Positions 3,795-14,352 of a DNA stretch of 16,914 bases are shown here, piece by piece. Within the stretch, counting starts at the first letter, position 1. Each line of letters begins with the position of its first letter. The position numbers were made by a program, and so were the translations under genes. A model generated the notes under the pieces. The model saw only the letters and a list, made by a program, of their open reading frames with translations, made no database searches and was not told where the DNA came from. The DNA comes from Candidatus Heimdallarchaeota archaeon (GTDB lineage: Archaea > Asgardarchaeota > Heimdallarchaeia > Heimdallarchaeales > Heimdallarchaeaceae): contig JABCTC010000061.1 in NCBI GenBank assembly GCA_018238545.1, positions 1 to 16,914 on the forward strand, written 5' to 3'.

Positions 3795-4751
3795 TTGTTA
3801 AAGGCTGTTGATATAACTAAAGTCTATCCCTCAAATAGAGTAAGAGCATTAGAAAAATTTTCTATTGATATCAAACCTGGTGAGATAATGGGTTTACTCG
3901 GACCGAATGGAGCTGGTAAGTCAACTTTTGTGAGAATTGCTGTTGGAGTCTTGGATAGAGATTTAGGCTCATTATCAGTTTGCGGATATGATTCTGATTC
4001 AGAGAGGAAGAAGATCTCAAATTTAGTTTCATGGATTCCTCAAGAGGGAACCTCTAAGATGATTCTGAATAGAACTGGGCGAGAAAATATAATCTATTAT
4101 TCTTGGATAAAAGGATTATCGAGAAAAGAATCAGAACGAAGAATTGATGAGCTTTTGGAGAAATTGAATATTGACAAAAGGATATTAAATAAAACCTATC
4201 GTATTATGAGTGGAGGTCAAAAACAGTTAACTAACATTATTAATGGCTTGATTATGGATTCAAAATTGTTGTTCTGTGATGAGATATCTGTAAGTATTGA
4301 TCCAATTATAACAAAGTCAATTTATGATTATCTCAGAGAATACACCTCTGATGGACGCGCTGTTCTTCTTACTTCACAAAATATATCTGAAGTGGAAAAT
4401 CTTTCAGATCGAATAGCAATAATTCAATCTGGAAAGTTAGTGGCACTTGATAAACCACGAGAAATTTCTAAAAAAATACTGAAATATGAGGTAATTGATC
4501 TGATATTTGAGAATGACGTAGTTGAAAATAAGGCTTTTTCAAGTTTTAATTCTGAGTTAGAAGAACAAAAGTATTTTCAATCCGAAGAGCTCAATAATAA
4601 TGTTCTCCATATTAGGTCAGATAATGCTAATAAACTACTCAAATCTATCCTGGTTTTACTAGAGAAATATTCCTTGAATCCATCGATAGAATCTGGTAAA
4701 GCTAATCTTAGCATGGCTCTTCAAATGTTGAAAAAGGAGGAAGAAAAATGA
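3795..4751 (+). CDS. ABC-2 type exporter ATP-binding subunit
   Basis: Walker A GPNGAGKS, Q-loop WIPQE, signature MSGGQKQ, Walker B LLFCDE; TTG start after GAGGT. Confidence 0.93.
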   Translation: MLKAVDITKVYPSNRVRALEKFSIDIKPGEIMGLLGPNGAGKSTFVRIAVGVLDRDLGSLSVCGYDSDSERKKISNLVSWIPQEGTSKMILNRTGRENIIYYSWIKGLSRKESERRIDELLEKLNIDKRILNKTYRIMSGGQKQLTNIINGLIMDSKLLFCDEISVSIDPIITKSIYDYLREYTSDGRAVLLTSQNISEVENLSDRIAIIQSGKLVALDKPREISKKILKYEVIDLIFENDVVENKAFSSFNSELEEQKYFQSEELNNNVLHIRSDNANKLLKSILVLLEKYSLNPSIESGKANLSMALQMLKKEEEK

Positions 4752-5590
4752 AAACTTTTTATGCAAATTTCTGGAGAGAAATGAAATACAATCTCGGTCG
4801 GAGAGGTGTATGGATGGGACGATTGGTAAATGTTTCTGTCTCCATACTTACAGCTTTTGCAATGGGAATCATCTACTCTTTCAGTTCTGATGCTCAATCG
4901 ATTGTGGGAATAGCTAATGTAGGCTTATTTCTTTTAACTGGTTTTTTCTTACAGTATTTAGTTCTTTCAAGTGTAACTATAGCCCCAAATACTTTTTGGA
5001 GTGATATAAGGAATGGATCTTTTGAATTCATTTTTTATTATGAATTTAGTATCTCTGAATATATCTTTGGGATTTACTTTGCCCAATTCATTATAGATTT
5101 CGTTATTTCTCTACCTTTTCTAATAGCAATTATCATCGTAGCAGCAATAAATTCAATTCCAGTTATTTTAATCATCGCTTTCATAGGTTTTCTCATTTTT
5201 TCTTTCTTATGTTTATTTTCTATTACAATGTTGTTCGCTTCACTCTATGTTCTTAGTAAACAATTTATGGGTTATCACGGAGCTGTTACTTATATAGCCT
5301 ATTTCGTATGTGGTGTCTATTTCCCCATTTTAGGATATCTCTCTCTCTTTGGACAAACAGCAGGATGGGCGATAATTGGAATAATCTCTATTTTTCCATA
5401 TACACAAGTATTTGATATTGCTAGATATATTATTTTTGGTTCAAGTTACACCCTCGCCTATCCTGCACTTTGGGTTGCTTTTCTGATAATGATTTCCAGT
5501 TCGATTATTTTTTATTTCTTATCATTAATTATTTTCAGGAAAGGTTTCAAAAATCTGAGAAAGGAAGGGTTCGCAGCTTACCGTTACTAA
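4748..5590 (+). CDS. ABC-2 type exporter permease
   Basis: About 6 TM helices, DIRNGSFE motif (E..GT.E-like), late FP/P..Y motifs; ATGA overlap with the ATPase stop and GGAGG RBS. Confidence 0.88.
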   Translation: MKTFYANFWREMKYNLGRRGVWMGRLVNVSVSILTAFAMGIIYSFSSDAQSIVGIANVGLFLLTGFFLQYLVLSSVTIAPNTFWSDIRNGSFEFIFYYEFSISEYIFGIYFAQFIIDFVISLPFLIAIIIVAAINSIPVILIIAFIGFLIFSFLCLFSITMLFASLYVLSKQFMGYHGAVTYIAYFVCGVYFPILGYLSLFGQTAGWAIIGIISIFPYTQVFDIARYIIFGSSYTLAYPALWVAFLIMISSSIIFYFLSLIIFRKGFKNLRKEGFAAYRY

Positions 5591-5660
5591 TTATCTCACC
5601 CAGAAAATTTAATATCAAGTTATACTACTTTCTAGAAAGAGTTGAATTCGAGGGAATAAA

Positions 5661-6764
5661 ATGAATAAGGAAGAACAACCATTAACCCCTACATTGCCTT
5701 ACGTTTTTCAAACCAAAGTTACTCAACAAGGCATTATAACAATCCCTTTCTCTTTGAAATTAGTTTTAGATAATCATTATCTGTTCAACTTTCAACCTCT
5801 GAAAAGTGAAATCATTTATTCCCAGGTTAAACAGATAAAACACTCAGGACAAAGACAATATGTTTCTTGTCGCATTAAATCTCCTTTCTTACAAAAGGGA
5901 GATGAAGTAAAGGTTACCATAGTCAAGGAATTTAAAGCTTCAGAAGAGTTTACTGTTGATGATGAAGATGAAGAGTATTCCCTTCTTTTTAACCAAACTG
6001 TTAGATGTTTGTTCCTGTACTCTTTTCAAGAGAAAGATGAAATCTTAACCGCAGAAGAGAGCAAGGACTTTCTAGGAGAGCATCCAAATTTCACTAGGCA
6101 TGAGTTTATCAAGAACTCCCTTGATCTGCTTAATAAGAAAGATGATATATTCACAAAAGAGGAAAAAGAATTCTTTGATATATTACGTTTCAAAAATTAT
6201 GCGGTAATTAGGTTCGTTGGGAAAAAACGCGCTTTGAGTTTTGATGTCCTTCAGCAAAAACCTTCAGAAGAGGCAAAGAAAGCCTATGAAACACATATCC
6301 CATTTGTCTTTATTGTGCTTACGAAGATTGATTATACGCAATTTTTACTCTCTCAACATCTTAGGACTAGGTTCAAACTCTTTCTAGATAAATTTCAAAG
6401 TGTGTCATCTTATCTTCCTTATGTGATTAAGGAGTTTTCTTCACTTCTACAGAGCGATATATTTGAGATAATGACAAAGTTTGATGATAGTACAAGAAAA
6501 TTCAATAGCCTTGATGATGTGAGATTCTGGTTTTTTATACCAGCTGAATATCATGATTTAATCAAGAAAATCCAGATGGAATTTTACTCAGGAAAGAAGT
6601 TTGTAAAAATAAACGAGTTGATAGAATCAATGAAAACAGAAAAGGGAAACACTGAGGCAAAACAACTAGTAGTTAATGCAATAGAATGGTTGTATAGGCA
6701 CCAAGTAATCAATGTAAGAGAGATGGATGGAGAGAAAATAATGGAGATATATAAGATTGAATAA
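5661..6764 (+). CDS. Multidomain putative regulator: N-terminal AbrB/SpoVT-like DNA-binding region, C-terminal winged-helix-like region
   Basis: TKVTQQGIITIP..LK..L and LQKGDEVKVTI resemble AbrB/MazE swapped-hairpin motifs; acidic linker EEFTVDDEDEEY; C-terminal VKINELIESM...VVNAIEWLYRHQVINVRE resembles wHTH. Confidence 0.5.
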   Translation: MNKEEQPLTPTLPYVFQTKVTQQGIITIPFSLKLVLDNHYLFNFQPLKSEIIYSQVKQIKHSGQRQYVSCRIKSPFLQKGDEVKVTIVKEFKASEEFTVDDEDEEYSLLFNQTVRCLFLYSFQEKDEILTAEESKDFLGEHPNFTRHEFIKNSLDLLNKKDDIFTKEEKEFFDILRFKNYAVIRFVGKKRALSFDVLQQKPSEEAKKAYETHIPFVFIVLTKIDYTQFLLSQHLRTRFKLFLDKFQSVSSYLPYVIKEFSSLLQSDIFEIMTKFDDSTRKFNSLDDVRFWFFIPAEYHDLIKKIQMEFYSGKKFVKINELIESMKTEKGNTEAKQLVVNAIEWLYRHQVINVREMDGEKIMEIYKIE

Positions 6765-7563
6765 ACACAACAAGAAGATAAATTCTCAAGTCATAAGCTT
6801 CTATTCTTATAGAGGTGGAACAGGAAAATCAACCATCGCTTCGAACCTTGCTATCATCTCCTCAAAAAAATACAAAACAATTCTAGTTGATTTAGATCTC
6901 TATTCTCCTCAATTAACATATATCTTTGAGAAAACAAGTGAGAACTACATAAATGATTATCTGCACTCCTCTCTCTTTACATCTAAACATGCTAAAAATC
7001 GAATTGAAAGCTTAGATGAGGTGATTTGTGAAAGCTCGTTTAAGAACCTTGATTTAGTATTGGCAAACCCTAGGATGTCTCTTACTGATAACACAATTTT
7101 ACATGATGAAATAATTACAAAAAAGGTTTTTCCTTGCTTCCAACATATGATAGAATTACTCAAAACCCAATATGAAGTAATAATCCTCGATTGCCCTGGA
7201 GAATTGAATTACTATACACTTAATGGTATAGCTGTAGCAGATAGAGCTGTAGCAGTAAGTATTCCCACCATTGCTAATGTTAAGGGAATGATAGAGTTAT
7301 TGAAAATTTTTAGTTCTGCACTTCAAGGTAAAAAAACTGATATTATTCTGATGATGATAACCCCAAGACCATCAAAAACAAAAGTAGAAAAATTAGAGAA
7401 ATGGAAACAAGAACTGGAAAAATATTCTCTAGAAAATTATCTTTGTTTTGATTATTCAGAAAATATTGCTTATAGGCATCAATTTGAAGATGACTTCTTT
7501 TATCTCCCAGAAGAAGAGGAGTATCAGAAATTGGAAGAATATTTGGCAGCAATTCTGAAGTGA
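6757..7563 (+). CDS. MinD/ParA-family (SIMIBI) ATPase
   Basis: Deviant Walker A SYRGGTGKST, switch I ILVDLDLYSP, Walker B YEVIILDCPG; overlaps the upstream stop. Confidence 0.9.
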   Translation: MNKHNKKINSQVISFYSYRGGTGKSTIASNLAIISSKKYKTILVDLDLYSPQLTYIFEKTSENYINDYLHSSLFTSKHAKNRIESLDEVICESSFKNLDLVLANPRMSLTDNTILHDEIITKKVFPCFQHMIELLKTQYEVIILDCPGELNYYTLNGIAVADRAVAVSIPTIANVKGMIELLKIFSSALQGKKTDIILMMITPRPSKTKVEKLEKWKQELEKYSLENYLCFDYSENIAYRHQFEDDFFYLPEEEEYQKLEEYLAAILK

Positions 7564-8891
7564 TTAAAATGGAACTCAAAACTTTACTATCACTGAAGAA
7601 AAAGGGAAAATGGATACATTATAATCTGATAAATCAAACAATGGTAAGAACTTCTCTTTCTCCAACAGAGCTAGATAGATCTCCTGCAGAAATCAAGAAA
7701 GAGCTGTTGTATGGAACAGATAAGGATTTGTTAATTAAATCTAATAGACATTATTATCAACAAGTTAGAGAAGAAATTACGAAGAGAAGAGAGTGGAACA
7801 CGCCTTTTCTATCAAGAAGTGAAGTAACTGTAACCTTATGGTACGATTGTAACTTTGCTTGCCCATATTGTTACCAAAAAGAAGAATATTATGATAAGGC
7901 AAAAGAAAGTGATGAAATCAATATTGAAAAGGCCATAGAATTCTTCAGAATAAAATCAAAAAATGGTGAGTTTCCTCCAAAAACTGTAGTTTTGATAGGT
8001 GGTGAACCTTTACTAAAAGGTAAGAAAAATAGAGATACTATAATAACACTCCTGAGAGCTCTCAATAAACTCTTTCTTGGAATTGAAATACACGTTATAT
8101 CCAATGGATATTATTTAGAAGAATATGCGGATACGCTTTCCCAATTCAATAATTTGAATATCGGATTAACAATTACGCTAGGATCTACAAGAAAGAAACA
8201 CAAGTTTGAAAGAATACTTAGAACTAAAAATTCAGAAGATACTTTTGAAAAAATATTTGTAGGCATGAAGTATTTTAGGAAGCAAATTCCTAAAGGTGGA
8301 ATTGTTATTAGAATGAATTTTGGACCAGATTACAACGAAGTAAATGAAACTACGGATTTGATGTATTTGATTAAAGAAGAAATACCCAATGTGAAATTTG
8401 AACTTTCTCCAGTCGTCTCATTTTCTAACCATCAAGAAATCAGTCTAGGTTTTTTCAAATTAATTAAGGAATTGATGATAAGCGAGGACTTCTCAAAGTC
8501 TTTCAAAATGAAATTAAATGATAATCTATATTACTTGTTACGTAATTCAATTCCACAACTAACAAAAAAAGAAATTTCATCAAAAAAGAAAATATGTAGT
8601 GCTGTTCTTTTAACAACAAACTATGATTTGTTTTCTGATTTCCAAATTCAACCTTGCGAGGATTTTAGAAACTATGAGAGTATAGATGGCGTCAATTTGA
8701 AGATATCAGAAGCTTTCATTGAATATCTTGATAAGAGAGTTGAGCAATGTATAGACTGTCCATTTTTTGTGGGATGTATCTCACATCCCTGTGAGATAGT
8801 AAAAAGAGCAACTCTAGAAAAAAGAGTTTGTTATGGGAGAGAACTATTACCACTTTTACAAATTATTGAAGAATTTTATTTAACAAAATAA
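7560..8891 (+). CDS. Radical SAM/SPASM-domain peptide maturase
   Basis: CNFACPYC (CxxxCxxC), GGEPLL, ISNG; C-terminal Cys array C-x19-C (QIQPC)...CIDCPFFVGCISHPC...C typical of SPASM; about 80-aa N-terminal extension compatible with a RiPP recognition element. Confidence 0.9.
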   Translation: MIKMELKTLLSLKKKGKWIHYNLINQTMVRTSLSPTELDRSPAEIKKELLYGTDKDLLIKSNRHYYQQVREEITKRREWNTPFLSRSEVTVTLWYDCNFACPYCYQKEEYYDKAKESDEINIEKAIEFFRIKSKNGEFPPKTVVLIGGEPLLKGKKNRDTIITLLRALNKLFLGIEIHVISNGYYLEEYADTLSQFNNLNIGLTITLGSTRKKHKFERILRTKNSEDTFEKIFVGMKYFRKQIPKGGIVIRMNFGPDYNEVNETTDLMYLIKEEIPNVKFELSPVVSFSNHQEISLGFFKLIKELMISEDFSKSFKMKLNDNLYYLLRNSIPQLTKKEISSKKKICSAVLLTTNYDLFSDFQIQPCEDFRNYESIDGVNLKISEAFIEYLDKRVEQCIDCPFFVGCISHPCEIVKRATLEKRVCYGRELLPLLQIIEEFYLTK

Positions 8892-8940
8892 TAGGATAAA
8901 TTTAAAAGAGTGTATGTCACTTAGAAGACAAGGTGATTCA

Positions 8941-9132
8941 ATGGGAAGAAGAGATAAAAATACAGAAGATAAATTAACATTTGAAGTAATTATAAGAAAT
9001 ACAGTAACAAGTGGAGCACAATCTAGTATTCAAACTGTTAGTGATCCACCTAGTGATTGTCCTGGTCAGTGTGGGCAATCTGATTTAGGATCTTCGCTTA
9101 GAACCTCAGCCTGTGATATATTATTGTGGTAA
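8941..9132 (+). CDS. Putative RiPP precursor peptide (63 aa)
   Basis: AGGTGA RBS at 8931-8936 favours ATG 8941 over 8914; MGRRDKNTEDKLTFEVIIRN leader-like part plus S/T/G/D/C-rich core (DPPSDCPGQCGQSDLGSSLRTSACDILLW); directly downstream of the rSAM/SPASM gene. Confidence 0.75.
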   Translation: MGRRDKNTEDKLTFEVIIRNTVTSGAQSSIQTVSDPPSDCPGQCGQSDLGSSLRTSACDILLW

Positions 9133-9164
9133 TAAGCAATATTTAAGTTATCGAAAATATCTAA

Positions 9165-10853
9165 TTGGTGTTTACAATACTATTCTCTTTTATTTATTTG
9201 AAGAAAAATCATCCATTAAGAACATGTATACTAGAAACTAGTAAACTTTTTTGTGATTATTCAGCTTCAGATTCTGATTTTATAGAATCTGTAAGAAAAA
9301 TATTAACTGCTTCGGAATCTCAATCATTAAAAGAAGAAGAGTTGTATACAATAAAATCTGCTGTAGATTGTATAGAAGTATTTCTAGCAGATTATGATTT
9401 TAAAAGGTTTGATGAAATTTGTTCAAAAGCAAAATCTGTAGGATATCGTGAAAGCTTTATTGATTTGCTACTCTTAAAAGGTTTGATTTTAAGTTCTTTG
9501 AGTATGTCTGGCTTAAATCGCAATTTTAGAATAAGCGAGAAAGAGAAGATTTTCTCTTTGTTAAAAGAAGTTGATTTACAAAAAAACATCTATTTTGATT
9601 TAATATATGGAAAATATCTCTTCATAAAAGGGAATGAGCAACAAGCGTCTATTCTTTACGAAGATCTAAAAAACAGAATCGCTCAAGATGACTGTGCTTC
9701 ACAGGTTATCATTTTGAATCTTCTCTCTTGTATATATGAACGTGAGCCTTCCAAACAGATTAGTATCATAAACGAGGGGATGAATGGTACTTGCTTTTAT
9801 TGGAACTTCGTTATTCAATATATAGACTTCTTAACACAAAGGGGAAAATATGTAGAATTACTTCAAGAAGGTTCTATCTTCTTGCAAAAATTAGATGAAA
9901 ATAAAGTAATAGAATTACTTCACAAAAAAGCACATATATTAAACCATATGATCAAAGCATCTTATAAATTGAATGAACAAGCTAAAATGAATCATTACAC
10001 CCAGCTTTTTAGAGAAGCTCTAGACGAACTTCCGGATGATAACCATGGATTGAAGAGAAATTTTGAGTTTCTTAAATTCACACATGAAATTTTGTATCAA
10101 GCATTTTATGAAGAAAAATTACAAATTGATTTGAGTGATAAGAAAATCCAAACTTTTAGTAAAAATCATTATGTGAAAATGTTGCAATCATTTCTTATAG
10201 TGAACCCACTAATAAATAGACTTATTCAAGATGGTGAGTTTGATCAAGCTTCTCTTTTTATAAATAATATAGAGAAAGGAAAAGGATACTCACAATCTAC
10301 TGATGAGTTAATAACTTTCATGAAATACTTCTCTCTTTCACTTCTCATTGATAAATCCCTAAAATGGAAGAAATATAACAGTAAGAATTATGAAGGGAAT
10401 CAGACTGAAGTGGCTTTAGCTTATTTAGAAGAAGGTACAACATATCTAGGTGAACTAGATTATTCATTCAAAATAGCTTCTTTTCTTCAAGAAATTATCT
10501 TGAAATCGAGATTAGGTAGATTGAATGAAGTTAAAGAAACAGTTTTAGATGATATACAACTAACTGAAGGTTATGATCGTATACTTGCACTGATGGTTTC
10601 ACTTCTTTATTATTCTGGTAATGAGGAGATAGAAAAATTTCACAAAACTAAACAAGTGTTGCTTTTTGAATTAGACAAATATAAGGAACTGAGTTCTTAC
10701 AGTATTTGGAAAGAAAATATGAATAACCTCTTTTCATTCCTAGATGTTAAAGATAAAGTTCTTTCTACAAGGAAAACAACCTTCTTAGATATAGAACAAA
10801 TTAAGTCTTATACAACCTTCTTACAAAATCAGATCCATAAACAAATGGTATAA
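9165..10853 (+). CDS. Large alpha-helical (TPR-like) repeat protein
   Basis: Amphipathic helix pairs with TPR-like signatures (YGKYLFIKGNEQQASILYE; FLTQRGKYVELL; LIQDGEFDQASLFI; SRLGRLNEVKE). Start codon uncertain. Confidence 0.6.
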   Translation: MVFTILFSFIYLKKNHPLRTCILETSKLFCDYSASDSDFIESVRKILTASESQSLKEEELYTIKSAVDCIEVFLADYDFKRFDEICSKAKSVGYRESFIDLLLLKGLILSSLSMSGLNRNFRISEKEKIFSLLKEVDLQKNIYFDLIYGKYLFIKGNEQQASILYEDLKNRIAQDDCASQVIILNLLSCIYEREPSKQISIINEGMNGTCFYWNFVIQYIDFLTQRGKYVELLQEGSIFLQKLDENKVIELLHKKAHILNHMIKASYKLNEQAKMNHYTQLFREALDELPDDNHGLKRNFEFLKFTHEILYQAFYEEKLQIDLSDKKIQTFSKNHYVKMLQSFLIVNPLINRLIQDGEFDQASLFINNIEKGKGYSQSTDELITFMKYFSLSLLIDKSLKWKKYNSKNYEGNQTEVALAYLEEGTTYLGELDYSFKIASFLQEIILKSRLGRLNEVKETVLDDIQLTEGYDRILALMVSLLYYSGNEEIEKFHKTKQVLLFELDKYKELSSYSIWKENMNNLFSFLDVKDKVLSTRKTTFLDIEQIKSYTTFLQNQIHKQMV

Positions 10854-11233: not shown

Positions 11234-12745
11234 TTGAAAGTAAAAGAATTGAAAATATCAACATATTCAAATTTTTGGTTAGATAATGGCATTGTTTCAC
11301 TCTATTCTTTAATTAAAAATTGTAAAGGTATTTCCAATTTAGAACTAACAAATGAAGAATTGTGTTTTACAATTAATGATTTAACTATCTTCATAGATCA
11401 ATTGAGAAACAATATACTTCGAGAAGTGAACCGAGTTCTTTTCTTCCAGATTCAAGATCCACAAACTAAACTTATCAAAATTGTAAGAAGACAGTATGTA
11501 ATTTCACAACAAGTAAAAGGTGGAGCACTTAAAGAAAAGATTTTCAATGAAGAACATGTAAAGCAACAGCTTGAGGATGCTTTTGATTTTGATACAAAAA
11601 AGAAGACTTGCGTTATATGTGGTAATGAATATTCAAAATCAAAGAATTTAACACAGACTGTATTCCCACTAGTTACTAAGATGAAAAGTCTAGGAGGAAT
11701 AAGAGGGAATAAAGAATATATTGATGTATGTCCAATATGTTATTTAGTTTCAGCTTCAGCCTGGTTGGATAATAATATTTATACAAACATCGATCCGAGT
11801 ACGAAAGGTTTCTCAATATTGCTTCTTCCAATTCAAAATAATTTGGTGAACTATTATAAAGTTAAAAAAATGATAAGAACTGTCACTGATATGCAAACCA
11901 CTAAAATGTCTAGCATATTAGTGAAATCAATAACTCAAGATAGGAAAAAAAGAAAAGTCAGAGGATATGAAAAATATTCCACATTATTATTACTTCTAGA
12001 AGAGTTGATGCATAAATTAAGAGAACCAGATTCTGATCCATTTTCAGCTAAGTTGAATGATTTAGTAAACACCGAATGGTATTCTCTAACAATCCCCCAT
12101 GGAGGTATGAAGAATATTAAAACAGAAATCATATCTATAGATCATAGGATTATTAATTTATTGAATACTCTTATTGAGAAGTATAACAATTTAAGAATAT
12201 ATTCAGATTTTGTTGACAAAATCTATGTTACATCTGATGGGAAACCAGATTTTGCTAGTGGCAAGAAGATAAAAGAATCTTTAGCCATGGCTCTAATTAA
12301 AAATGATCTAGATTTGTTCTGCACAACTATTTTTCCTTCTAGAGGTTTAACTGTATCATTTTCTTTTAGCAATATTGATTTTCTATTATACGAATGGAGG
12401 TTAAGAATTTTGAATTATGGAATGGAAAAACTCGAAGTCTTTAAAAAAACTGCAAACATCATTGCAGAGGTAAGTAAGAAAAACACAGGTCTCTTTTATA
12501 GATTAGATAAAACTAGAACTTTCTCTGATTTTCTTGAATCAATTAAAGATGCTGCACGGGGTATGGTTAGTCTAAGCTCATCTGCTGAACAAGGAGAAAC
12601 AAAGTATAAAATATCCCCAACAGCTTTTGATGATTTTCTGACATTACTACTTGAAAATCAACAACATTGGAAGGATATCAAGAGTATTTTAATTATTTAC
12701 ACAGCAATGTATTATTCAATAAAAATGAAAAAAATAAGAGGTTGA
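11234..12745 (+). CDS. cas8a1: Type I CRISPR large subunit Cas8a1/Cst1 (CXXC-CXXC family)
   Basis: N-terminal NFWLDNGIVSL, zinc motif CVICG...FPL...CPICY, helical Cas11-like C-terminus; first gene before cas7-cas5. Confidence 0.82.
   Translation: MKVKELKISTYSNFWLDNGIVSLYSLIKNCKGISNLELTNEELCFTINDLTIFIDQLRNNILREVNRVLFFQIQDPQTKLIKIVRRQYVISQQVKGGALKEKIFNEEHVKQQLEDAFDFDTKKKTCVICGNEYSKSKNLTQTVFPLVTKMKSLGGIRGNKEYIDVCPICYLVSASAWLDNNIYTNIDPSTKGFSILLLPIQNNLVNYYKVKKMIRTVTDMQTTKMSSILVKSITQDRKKRKVRGYEKYSTLLLLLEELMHKLREPDSDPFSAKLNDLVNTEWYSLTIPHGGMKNIKTEIISIDHRIINLLNTLIEKYNNLRIYSDFVDKIYVTSDGKPDFASGKKIKESLAMALIKNDLDLFCTTIFPSRGLTVSFSFSNIDFLLYEWRLRILNYGMEKLEVFKKTANIIAEVSKKNTGLFYRLDKTRTFSDFLESIKDAARGMVSLSSSAEQGETKYKISPTAFDDFLTLLLENQQHWKDIKSILIIYTAMYYSIKMKKIRG
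12410..12745 (+). CDS. cas11: Probable internally translated small subunit Cas11 (in frame within cas8)
   Basis: GGAGGT at 12396-12401 lies 8 nt before in-frame TTG 12410 (ATG at 12422); the product (107-111 aa) has the GLFYRLDKTRTFSDFLESI helical motif typical of Cas8 C-termini/small subunits. Confidence 0.55.
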   Translation: MNYGMEKLEVFKKTANIIAEVSKKNTGLFYRLDKTRTFSDFLESIKDAARGMVSLSSSAEQGETKYKISPTAFDDFLTLLLENQQHWKDIKSILIIYTAMYYSIKMKKIRG

Positions 12746-12749
12746 AAAA

Positions 12750-13673
12750 ATGAAAGATAAAATAAAAGGTATTAGCTTAACATGGTTATCAAAAGTAGAT
12801 CTCTCCAACTTAAATAGTGGAGAAGGAGGAAGCAATTATATTGATGTCAAGAAATTCAAAGCGAACAATATAGACTATCCATATGTTAGCGGACAAGCTA
12901 TGCGGCATTACATCAAATCAGCAATTAGAAGACTGGGTGCAGAAGGATGTATCTTAAATGAAAAAGGTGAAGGATGCCGAGATATTCAATCTTGTATAAT
13001 TTGTGATTTATTTGGTTTTATGTCTCCCAAAGCAAAAAGTGGGGCAGAAACAAGAATTTCTCCCGTAAAAGTGTCTCCAGCGATAGGATTATATCCATTA
13101 GATGAAAATATAACCGTAGATTTTCTAACAAGAAAGAAGTATAAAGGTGAAAAATATATCGGAGACATAGTTCATGTTGAACTTGCTCACAACCTTTATC
13201 GATGTGGAATTAGTATAGATATAAGAAGAGTTTCTGCTGAAGAAATTCCTAATTCAAGTGAAGCAAAAATTGAGCTTAAAGAATATGGAGGAATAGATCA
13301 AGCAAAAATTAGGATTAAATTGCTATTGCGAGCTTTATTATACTTAACCGAAGCTTCAAAACAATCTAGATTACTTACAGATTTCACACCAGATTTCTTG
13401 GTTATTACTTTTCAAAAGCACTTTTCAAACCGAATTCAAAAAGCTTTATCAATCCAAGAATACGAGAAATTAGATCTGGTTAGATTTGAAAGCATTATAA
13501 ATGATTTGAAGTTTGATGATAATATTATAATCGTGGGAATGCTGCCTAACACGATAAGAGAAGAGCAGAAAATTAAAAAAATCTTAGAAGAATCTGATAT
13601 CCCCATATTTAGTCCTAAGAAAGCTATTGAAGAATCAGTGAAATTGTTAGAAAAAATTGAAATATCTAGGTAG
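12750..13673 (+). CDS. cas7: Cas7/Cst2/DevR backbone subunit
   Basis: SNLNSGEG..N..DVKK, PYVSGQAMRHYIK, CDLFGFM, RISPVKVSPAI, KQSRLLTDFTPD motifs. Confidence 0.93.
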   Translation: MKDKIKGISLTWLSKVDLSNLNSGEGGSNYIDVKKFKANNIDYPYVSGQAMRHYIKSAIRRLGAEGCILNEKGEGCRDIQSCIICDLFGFMSPKAKSGAETRISPVKVSPAIGLYPLDENITVDFLTRKKYKGEKYIGDIVHVELAHNLYRCGISIDIRRVSAEEIPNSSEAKIELKEYGGIDQAKIRIKLLLRALLYLTEASKQSRLLTDFTPDFLVITFQKHFSNRIQKALSIQEYEKLDLVRFESIINDLKFDDNIIIVGMLPNTIREEQKIKKILEESDIPIFSPKKAIEESVKLLEKIEISR

Positions 13674-13674
13674 G

Positions 13675-14352
13675 ATGTGTAAATTGTTAGGTATACGATT
13701 TGATTTGGATCCTGTTAACTTTGTTTGCTTTAGAAATCCAATAACAAATAGCACAATATTAACCTACCCTATACCCCCTTTCACAACCATAATTGGATTA
13801 TTAGAATCTTGCTTAGGGAAACCATCGATTGAGAAACGTAATGATTTGAAAGAATTTCACCTTATAGATAAGGTTAGAATAGGATTACGAATTTTAGACG
13901 AAGGAAGTAAAAACAGAGAAATAGCCTTAATATTAAAGCTGAAAGAGGGAAGTGGGTCTTCACCTGTATTTAGAGAGTTTTTAGCATATCCAAAGTATAG
14001 AGTCTATCTTACTTCTGATAACAAAAGTTTACTTGAAAGAATTCACGGAGCTCTAAAAAATCCAAGACGGCCTTTATATTTGGGTTCATCTGATGACTTA
14101 GTTGATATTAGGAATATTAAGATGTTACCAATTCAGAAAGTTAAATCAAATTATATTGATGGTATTGGCTTTTACCCTTATCCTGATACTTCAACAATTC
14201 AGATACCATGGAAGTTTATGCAAATAGGAAAATCTTGGAATGTTGAAAAAGTACCTGTCTCAATACCAACCAGAGAGAAAATATTCTTTGATATCCCAAA
14301 GGAGGTATATGTGTTTGAAGAAGATAGAATTGAACTCTCACCCCCTAGGTAA
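13675..14352 (+). CDS. cas5: Cas5 (Cas5t/DevS-like)
   Basis: FRNP......TYPIPPFTTIIGLLESCLG, SPVFREFL, LKNPRRPLYLGSSDDLV; ATG at 13675 directly after the cas7 stop is the likelier start. Confidence 0.92.
   Translation: MCKLLGIRFDLDPVNFVCFRNPITNSTILTYPIPPFTTIIGLLESCLGKPSIEKRNDLKEFHLIDKVRIGLRILDEGSKNREIALILKLKEGSGSSPVFREFLAYPKYRVYLTSDNKSLLERIHGALKNPRRPLYLGSSDDLVDIRNIKMLPIQKVKSNYIDGIGFYPYPDTSTIQIPWKFMQIGKSWNVEKVPVSIPTREKIFFDIPKEVYVFEEDRIELSPPR

Follow-up and report, generated by a model that had tools for sequence, protein, structure and literature searches.

The question raised by this locus is whether a short open reading frame next to a radical SAM gene in a Heimdallarchaeota genome encodes the substrate of that enzyme and, if it does, what the enzyme makes of it. 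The stretch of DNA analysed here, referred to as the window, comprises 16,914 nt (G+C 32%) of a draft genome of 3.6 Mb in 128 contigs. On balance, the open reading frame at 8941-9132 is probably a genuine precursor gene for a peptide that is post-translationally modified by the neighbouring radical SAM enzyme. Its product most likely belongs to an unnamed and very narrowly distributed family of radical SAM peptides found in one Heimdallarchaeota genus. The first-pass annotation had proposed a precursor peptide of a radical SAM maturase, and synteny, a conserved leader and a Cys-bearing core make this the best reading of the gene. The features by which RiPP precursors are generally recognised are found here: linkage to a tailoring-enzyme gene (in three genomes), a conserved leader, and a few fixed core residues amid variable ones.

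Translation of 8941-9132 on the forward strand yields a putative precursor of 63 residues plus a stop, identical letter for letter to the peptide quoted in the first-pass annotation; Cys40, Cys44, Cys58, the CGQSD stretch (residues 44-48), the FEVIIR patch (14-19) and Trp63 are all present as described there. The peptide divides into a leader (about residues 1-34), a Pro-rich hinge (35-37) and a core (38-63) that contains C44-x7-S52-x-R54-x3-C58. The frame starts 49 nt 3' of the stop of the radical SAM gene (7560-8891) and ends 32 nt 5' of a gene for a helical-repeat protein (9165-10853); the peptide and helical-repeat genes are probably co-transcribed because so short a gap separates them. 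Both signals claimed for the gene can be read in the sequence: a Shine-Dalgarno-like AGGTGA (8931-8936, forward strand), 4 nt 5' of the ATG, and an A/T-rich, TATA-like box, AAATTTAAAA (8898-8907, same strand), centred about 39 nt 5' of it. A longer frame of 72 aa opens at ATG 8914, where the NCBI database copy (P0023) starts. The start at 8941 is favoured because the homologues use the equivalent start and because of the AGGTGA site; the homologues' own start codons are preceded, at 4-8 nt, by the weaker purine-rich AAGTGA, AGAGGA and AAGTGG. ATG-initiated frames of at least 63 codons appear in 88 of 5000 shuffles (1.8%) of the 306-nt spacer, and length alone is modest to weak evidence for a gene. 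The gene is judged real because homologous small open reading frames are conserved.

An A/T-rich box lies 30-50 nt 5' of every peptide copy, in the window and in two congeneric MAGs, L003/L010 and L004/L011 (loci L010 and L011 below). In L011, both of two tandem paralogues carry CAAAAGTATA[AT]AAA[CT]TAGAAA about 35-50 nt 5' of the ATG (L011:9140-9175 and 9455-9490), a duplicated promoter-like element. A promoter of its own is plausible for the peptide gene. At 31% G+C, such A/T boxes are not beyond chance. Separate transcription of the precursor genes is likewise plausible, because the L011 paralogues share the duplicated box and sit 1.8 kb from the enzyme gene. Scans for sigma-70 promoters and hairpin terminators gave nothing above shuffles; such scans are not applicable to archaea.

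The peptide has few relatives. A word-based search of 5.8 billion proteins returned a twin of 95% identity (P0002) as its sole match. Two more relatives, P0019 (61 aa, E 2.9e-11) and P0020 (66 aa, E 6.9e-5), emerged when 1.84 billion representatives were searched exhaustively with a profile. The sixth match of the profile search, a 3346-aa protein (E 4.7e-4), was set aside as partial and low-scoring. Small-ORF homologues occur in the two congeneric MAGs and in three more database entries. The distinct peptides number six, namely the window peptide (with its twin), P0019/P0022, P0020, P0018, P0003 and P0004, all from one genus-level lineage and together forming alignment A4; the homologues measure 61-69 aa and align over their full length. 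Of 399 Asgard genomes searched, 3 carry the peptide, all in one Heimdallarchaeota genus; a few metagenome contigs make up the rest of its known range. When the three carrier genomes were searched with a profile, no additional clear copy emerged, the leftover matches standing at E 0.25 and 0.75. Searched against the NCBIfam models, including those for SCIFF and other precursors, eight aligned peptides gave no match at E<=10.

Divergence in this family is uneven along the peptide. Met1, Gly25, Ile30, Cys44 and Ser52 are invariant in A4, and Phe14, Ile17, Pro36, Arg54 and Cys58 are present in five of the six sequences. Cys44 and Cys58, where both occur, are always 14 positions apart. The family signature consists of a leader patch F-[EKN]-[VI]-[IL], the Pro-rich hinge and a core C-x7-S-x-R-x3-C. 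The peptides have diverged in parallel with the enzymes, at 57, 34 and 19-29% identity for the peptides versus 76, 48 and 38-39% for the enzymes. The L011 paralogues P0003 and P0004 differ by dN 0.28 versus dS 0.53, and the window and L011b peptides by dN 0.65 versus dS 1.77; other pairs are saturated.

The expectation that the small open reading frame would be conserved beside a radical SAM gene is borne out by homologues with the same leader and a Cys-bearing core. Conservation of the Cys positions, on which the first-pass annotation had staked its reading, gives a split result: Cys44 and Cys58 are conserved, but Cys40 occurs only in the window peptide and its twin and is Leu in P0019, their closest other relative. 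The C-terminal Trp, singled out as a feature, is present in the window peptide, whereas the others have Met, Gly, Pro or Ile instead. Each aligned peptide has one to three Cys. P0018, the L010 peptide, has Cys44 alone and lacks both Cys58 and Arg54; no hidden second Cys was seen when the other downstream frames were read by eye, and the placement of its single Cys at C44 versus C40 depends on the alignment (A2 versus A4). At most two Cys-based links would therefore be conserved, not three, because Cys40 is unique to the window peptide and its twin, and a two-bridge product cannot be universal because P0018 has Cys44 only.

The radical SAM enzyme, the presumed maturase, is encoded at 7560-8891 (forward strand; 443 aa) and matches PF04055 at 56.1 bits (cut-off 29.5) as well as PF13353. 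Its CX3CX2C motif (C97/C101/C104) is invariant in the six sequences of alignment A3, in keeping with membership of the radical SAM superfamily. The protein has an N-terminal extension of about 85 aa and, within its C-terminal 100 residues or so, seven Cys that are invariant in A3 (346, 366, 397, 400, 406, 411 and 424). The SPASM pattern for two auxiliary clusters is C-x9-15-G-x4-C ... C-x2-C-x5-C-x3-C ... C. The spacing in the present enzyme, C346-x19-C366 ... C397-x2-C400-x5-C406-x4-C411-x12-C424, is SPASM-like in count and order and deviates in two spacings and the Gly. The SPASM model PF13186 does not match residues 321-443 at E<=10, and a genome-wide search with it finds four other genes and not this one. 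Seven rather than eight auxiliary Cys would, we presume, be consistent with a coordination site left open to a Cys of the substrate, such as CteB has. At the other end of the protein, the PqqD/RRE model PF05402, which matches other genes in the genome, finds nothing at E<=10 in residues 1-92; RREs are often too divergent for Pfam. In the AF2 model, residues 9-74 form three strands and then helices, with a pLDDT of 36-47 over residues 1-50.

The enzyme's best curated matches are peptide maturases. The first among the NCBIfam models is PapB (NF047865), at 63 bits against a cut-off of 340, and CefB, YhhB (third-best), FlmE/OhkG, Clo7bot, FxsB and DynA also match, all far below their cut-offs. Among solved structures, the relatives found by sequence are CteB, a thioether synthase (5wgg; best, E 3.2e-9), and the cyclophane synthase ChlB. 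The AlphaFold model (pLDDT 67, but under 50 at the N-terminus and in part of the Cys-rich tail) gives fold matches tied at Z 12-15 to ChlB, MoaA, anSME, TigE, SuiB, SkfB and CteB, with ChlB on top (9gmc, Z 15.1 over 294 residues). Its alignments to anSME and ChlB (Z 14.5-15.1) run as far as residue 442, through a stretch of low pLDDT. Thioether formers cannot be told apart from cyclophane synthases, anSME, MoaA or viperin by this ranking, and the modelled fold does not name the reaction.

A Cys-based crosslink is ranked likeliest because Cys44 and Ser52 are the sole invariant residues of the core, with Cys58 and Arg54 nearly so. No aromatic residue is conserved in the core of the six A4 peptides, which leaves cyclophane, streptide, darobactin-type or Trp-crosslink chemistry without a donor. 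A PapB-type motif is likewise missing, because no Asp or Glu stands at a fixed distance from either conserved Cys in A4. A crosslink from the sulfur of Cys44 to carbon, with a second from Cys58 where present, is accordingly put forward tentatively, with less confidence than the substrate reading of which it is part.

The alternative that survives best keeps the precursor as substrate of the same enzyme and changes the reaction to epimerisation, a C-C or C-O crosslink, or oxidation of Ser52 or a Cys; the Cys pair would then form a 15-residue disulfide loop or supply an auxiliary-cluster ligand. The fold and HMM matches leave room for this, since they do not discriminate: ChlB, anSME, TigE and SuiB score at least as well as CteB, and YhhB, FxsB and DynA are among the models matched. 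The invariant Ser52 or near-invariant Arg54 could be the target, and P0018 manages without a second Cys. Nonetheless, links of the cyclophane, streptide or darobactin type would lack the aromatic donor noted above, the sulfatase motif C/S-x-P/A-x-R is absent from the peptide alignment, the only invariant core residue besides Ser52 is a Cys, and the best curated and best solved sequence relatives of the enzyme are thioether formers. Non-thioether chemistry is on this evidence unlikely, if the least so of the alternatives.

The genes around the enzyme bear on how a thioether peptide, as preferred here, might be made and released. A row of six genes is conserved, in the order ABC ATPase, ABC-2 permease, 367-aa protein, ParA-like ATPase, radical SAM enzyme and helical-repeat protein. 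The order is the same in the window and L011, and in L010 up to the contig end about 280 nt into the helical-repeat gene. The first gene (3795-4751, forward strand, as are all in the row) encodes a DrrA-like ABC transporter ATP-binding subunit (PF00005, E 1e-23; TIGR01188 drrA subfamily, E 2.6e-52, below cut-off) and is also present in L010 and L011. Its stop is overlapped by the start of a gene (4748-5590) for a strongly hydrophobic, polytopic membrane protein, likely an ABC-2-type permease: the L011 orthologue matches PF01061 ABC2_membrane at E 1.2e-5 and 25.4 bits (cut-off 26.9), and the window copy at E 1.7. The 367-aa protein (5661-6764) is matched, in the same place in the row, by orthologues of 367 aa in L010 and 370 aa in L011; it has no Pfam, NCBIfam or PADLOC match, and its nearest ESM Atlas clusters are unnamed Asgard proteins (score 0.76).

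The fourth gene (6757-7563), which overlaps both of its neighbours, encodes a ParA/MinD-like P-loop ATPase (PF13614 AAA_31, E 2.8e-20), an unusual companion for a peptide maturase. Its Walker A motif reads RGGTGKS, with Arg replacing the signature Lys, and is kept in L010 and L011, where the orthologous gene likewise lies before that of the radical SAM enzyme. The RepA, MinD and KGGVGR-variant models match weakly, all below cut-off. A role as Fe-S carrier was considered and rejected: the NUBPL match covers the N-terminal P-loop only, and no CxxC was seen. The last gene of the row (9165-10853) encodes a 562-aa, all-helical, TPR-like solenoid protein, 34% identical to its L011 orthologue over the full length (E 4e-118) and 70% identical to P0028. 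It most likely starts at TTG 9165 or GTG 9168, where the N-terminus aligns with the ATG-initiated L010 orthologue. This protein has no family match, and the ESM Atlas was uninformative. Its AF2 model has about 28 helices (pLDDT 57, pTM 0.38) and generic TPR/PPR matches at TM about 0.2, and is too weak to support more than the label of alpha-solenoid.

The conserved unit can be delimited to 3795-10853 because the genes on both sides are not conserved in L011. Those 5' of the ABC ATPase have no conserved equivalent there, and the type I-B cas8, cas7 and cas5 genes that follow the cluster in the window (11234-14352) are replaced by a Big_7 Ig-domain protein (L011:10127-12049). The cas neighbourhood is thus incidental. 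A defence-system reading was rejected, PADLOC returning generic P-loop and viperin-core matches only and the cas adjacency being absent in L011. No conserved protease is found in the row. An alpha/beta hydrolase at 2079-2900, tried as leader peptidase, was discarded for want of a counterpart in L011.

Taken as a pathway, these genes suggest the following scheme. The leader would dock either on an accessory protein or on the N-terminal extension of the enzyme. Equipped with the CX3CX2C cluster and, probably, with two auxiliary clusters bound by the seven invariant Cys, the enzyme would take a hydrogen atom from the core, and the sulfur of Cys44, and of Cys58 where present, would be joined to a carbon of another core residue to give one or two thioether rings, with Ser52 and Arg54 as candidate acceptors or recognition residues. 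The leader would then be cut off by a protease, and the ABC-2-type transporter might either export the product or protect the producer. A bolder version, which we consider improbable, would make this a private RiPP class of Heimdall-group Asgard archaea with an undescribed crosslink (for example, from Cys sulfur to Ser52 or Arg54), an enzyme that works with the ParA-like ATPase and the helical-repeat protein, and a product secreted as a signal or antagonist.

Synteny ties the peptide gene to this row. The peptide gene lies directly 3' of the enzyme gene in the window and in L010 (enzyme 48% identical). No peptide gene follows the enzyme gene directly in L011 (enzyme 39%), where the helical-repeat gene comes between it and the tandem P0003 and P0004. 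Every peptide copy with readable context is therefore within one gene of the enzyme. From contigs of equal size (66097 and 16377 nt) we infer that P0019 and P0022 are linked to the radical SAM proteins P0025 and P0024, and another equal size (9957 nt) suggests the same for the helical-repeat homologue P0028 and the radical SAM protein P0007. The enzyme family is found in 3 of the 399 Asgard genomes searched, all of one genus. The protein search beyond those genomes gives three metagenome clusters (71-76% identity) and then weak matches at E 2e-9 or worse. Scanning metagenomes for the pattern of the enzyme alignment yielded L012 alone, a distant radical SAM gene in an unrelated neighbourhood (a thioredoxin reductase fusion), which was rejected.

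The same arrangement can be read as that of a peptide that is no substrate at all, but a small partner or ligand (for example, of the helical-repeat or 367-aa protein) or an unmodified signal or regulatory peptide, with the enzyme acting elsewhere. The L011 peptide genes, placed after the helical-repeat gene, away from the enzyme gene and behind promoter-like boxes of their own, fit such a role, as do the 32 nt between the peptide and helical-repeat genes in the window and the failure to detect an RRE in the enzyme. However, a leader-plus-core build with fixed Cys spacing and a hypervariable remainder is typical of precursors, the nearest curated relatives of the enzyme are peptide maturases, and all readable copies stay within one gene of it. 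A non-substrate role is for these reasons doubtful, and clearly more so than a different chemistry on the same substrate.

If the peptide is a precursor, as we favour, the known systems that it most resembles are the ranthipeptides and sactipeptides, including PapB/freyrasin, CteB/SCIFF thermocellin and the archaeal CrpC/CrpA pair of Methanococcus voltae (PMC13692751). In each, a radical SAM gene adjoins that of a short precursor whose leader is conserved and whose core contains Cys. The enzymes also share a CX3CX2C motif, a Cys-rich C-terminal region and an N-terminal extension of about 85 aa, and the clusters include an ABC transporter. CrpC is an archaeal SPASM enzyme shown to install a thioether (PMC13692751), and genome mining has located radical SAM RiPP clusters across archaeal superphyla, Asgard included, without their products (PMC12144867); the present locus is a candidate of that kind. 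The differences begin with the precursor. Freyrasin and SCIFF have six Cys, whereas the Heimdallarchaeota family has two conserved ones; the SCIFF precursor criterion is six Cys in about 45 residues, compared with one to three here. Unlike ranthipeptide and sactipeptide maturases, the enzyme falls far below the family cut-offs and has no SPASM or PqqD HMM match. To our knowledge, a ParA-like ATPase, a 367-aa protein and a helical-repeat protein of about 550 aa do not accompany characterised ranthipeptide or sactipeptide genes. Triceptide synthases are a second point of likeness, as ChlB has the highest structural Z and the YhhB model comes third among the NCBIfam matches. Every motif of a triceptide core requires an aromatic residue, whereas the core of the present family conserves none. 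ChlB appears as a multiple cyclophane synthase in reference 52 of PMC12912966. The literature found holds no description of the peptide family, the C-x7-S-x-R-x3-C motif or the gene row. As far as these comparisons go, the family resembles ranthipeptide and sactipeptide systems in outline and matches no curated precursor or maturase family.

A PapB/freyrasin-like ranthipeptide is what the first-pass annotation had read from the CGQSD motif, with a Cys44-Asp48 link and up to three thioethers from Cys40, Cys44 and Cys58. PapB is the enzyme's top NCBIfam match, and PMC9413430 documents its crosslinking of Cys-X3-Asp/Glu and tolerance of Cys-Xn-Asp with n = 0-6. However, Asp48, like Cys40, is confined to the window peptide and its 95% twin: the other five distinct peptides have T, I, V, V and I at this position, Thr being the residue of the closest relative, P0019. 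The Cys/Asp spacing that was expected to recur is therefore absent from the family, with no conserved Cys-x3-Asp/Glu of the freyrasin kind, and the enzyme reaches less than a fifth of the PapB cut-off. The pairing is, judged by the alignment, not part of the conserved design, and the Cx3D motif of the window peptide reads as a lineage-specific coincidence. The suggested likeness to SCIFF peptides fares no better: no aligned peptide matches a SCIFF model at E<=10, and the SCIFF maturase model TIGR03974 gives the enzyme 29 bits against a cut-off of 425. Membership of PapB, freyrasin or SCIFF families is thus not supported by the sequences, and a PapB-like product is very improbable. A chance open frame in the A+T-rich spacer, of the length that 1.8% of shuffles produce, is refuted by full-length homologues in five other sources that conserve start, length and motifs, and by a Shine-Dalgarno-like site as well, and can be dismissed.

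Other radical SAM genes in the genus may also belong to peptide-modifying loci. In a congener (G001:C1), the locus L005:1232-2856 holds a different small open reading frame with three Cys in its tail, directly 5' of and overlapping a distant homologue of the radical SAM gene. An in-frame TAA divides that homologue into 1378-2013 and 2059-2856, and the two genes are possibly a second precursor and maturase pair, now in decay. The window's own genome holds canonical SPASM genes at G000:C82:42328-43464 (reverse strand) and at about 84015, 100474 and 108027 on G000:C43 (reverse strand), the latter three on one contig within 25 kb. One SPASM gene of this genome has a PqqD-like element in the same 489-aa frame. 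The G000:C82 and G000:C43 genes are candidates for further radical SAM peptide loci.

The literature found includes no modified peptide characterised from an Asgard archaeon, and archaeal radical SAM peptides in general are barely explored. The locus described here is compact, comprising a single enzyme, a putative substrate of 63 aa in which only four core residues are fixed, and three accessory proteins that are conserved. It also corrects a motif-based shortcut that leads from Cx3D to ranthipeptide. If the product is an ordinary thioether peptide, chemistry of the ranthipeptide and sactipeptide type would extend to Asgard archaea. If the enzyme is active, the pair would represent a new precursor and maturase family, perhaps with a crosslink not seen before, and would open a way into the chemical interactions of Heimdallarchaeia. 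Should the private-class reading prove true, the archaeal lineage nearest to eukaryotes would gain its first natural product pathway open to characterisation.
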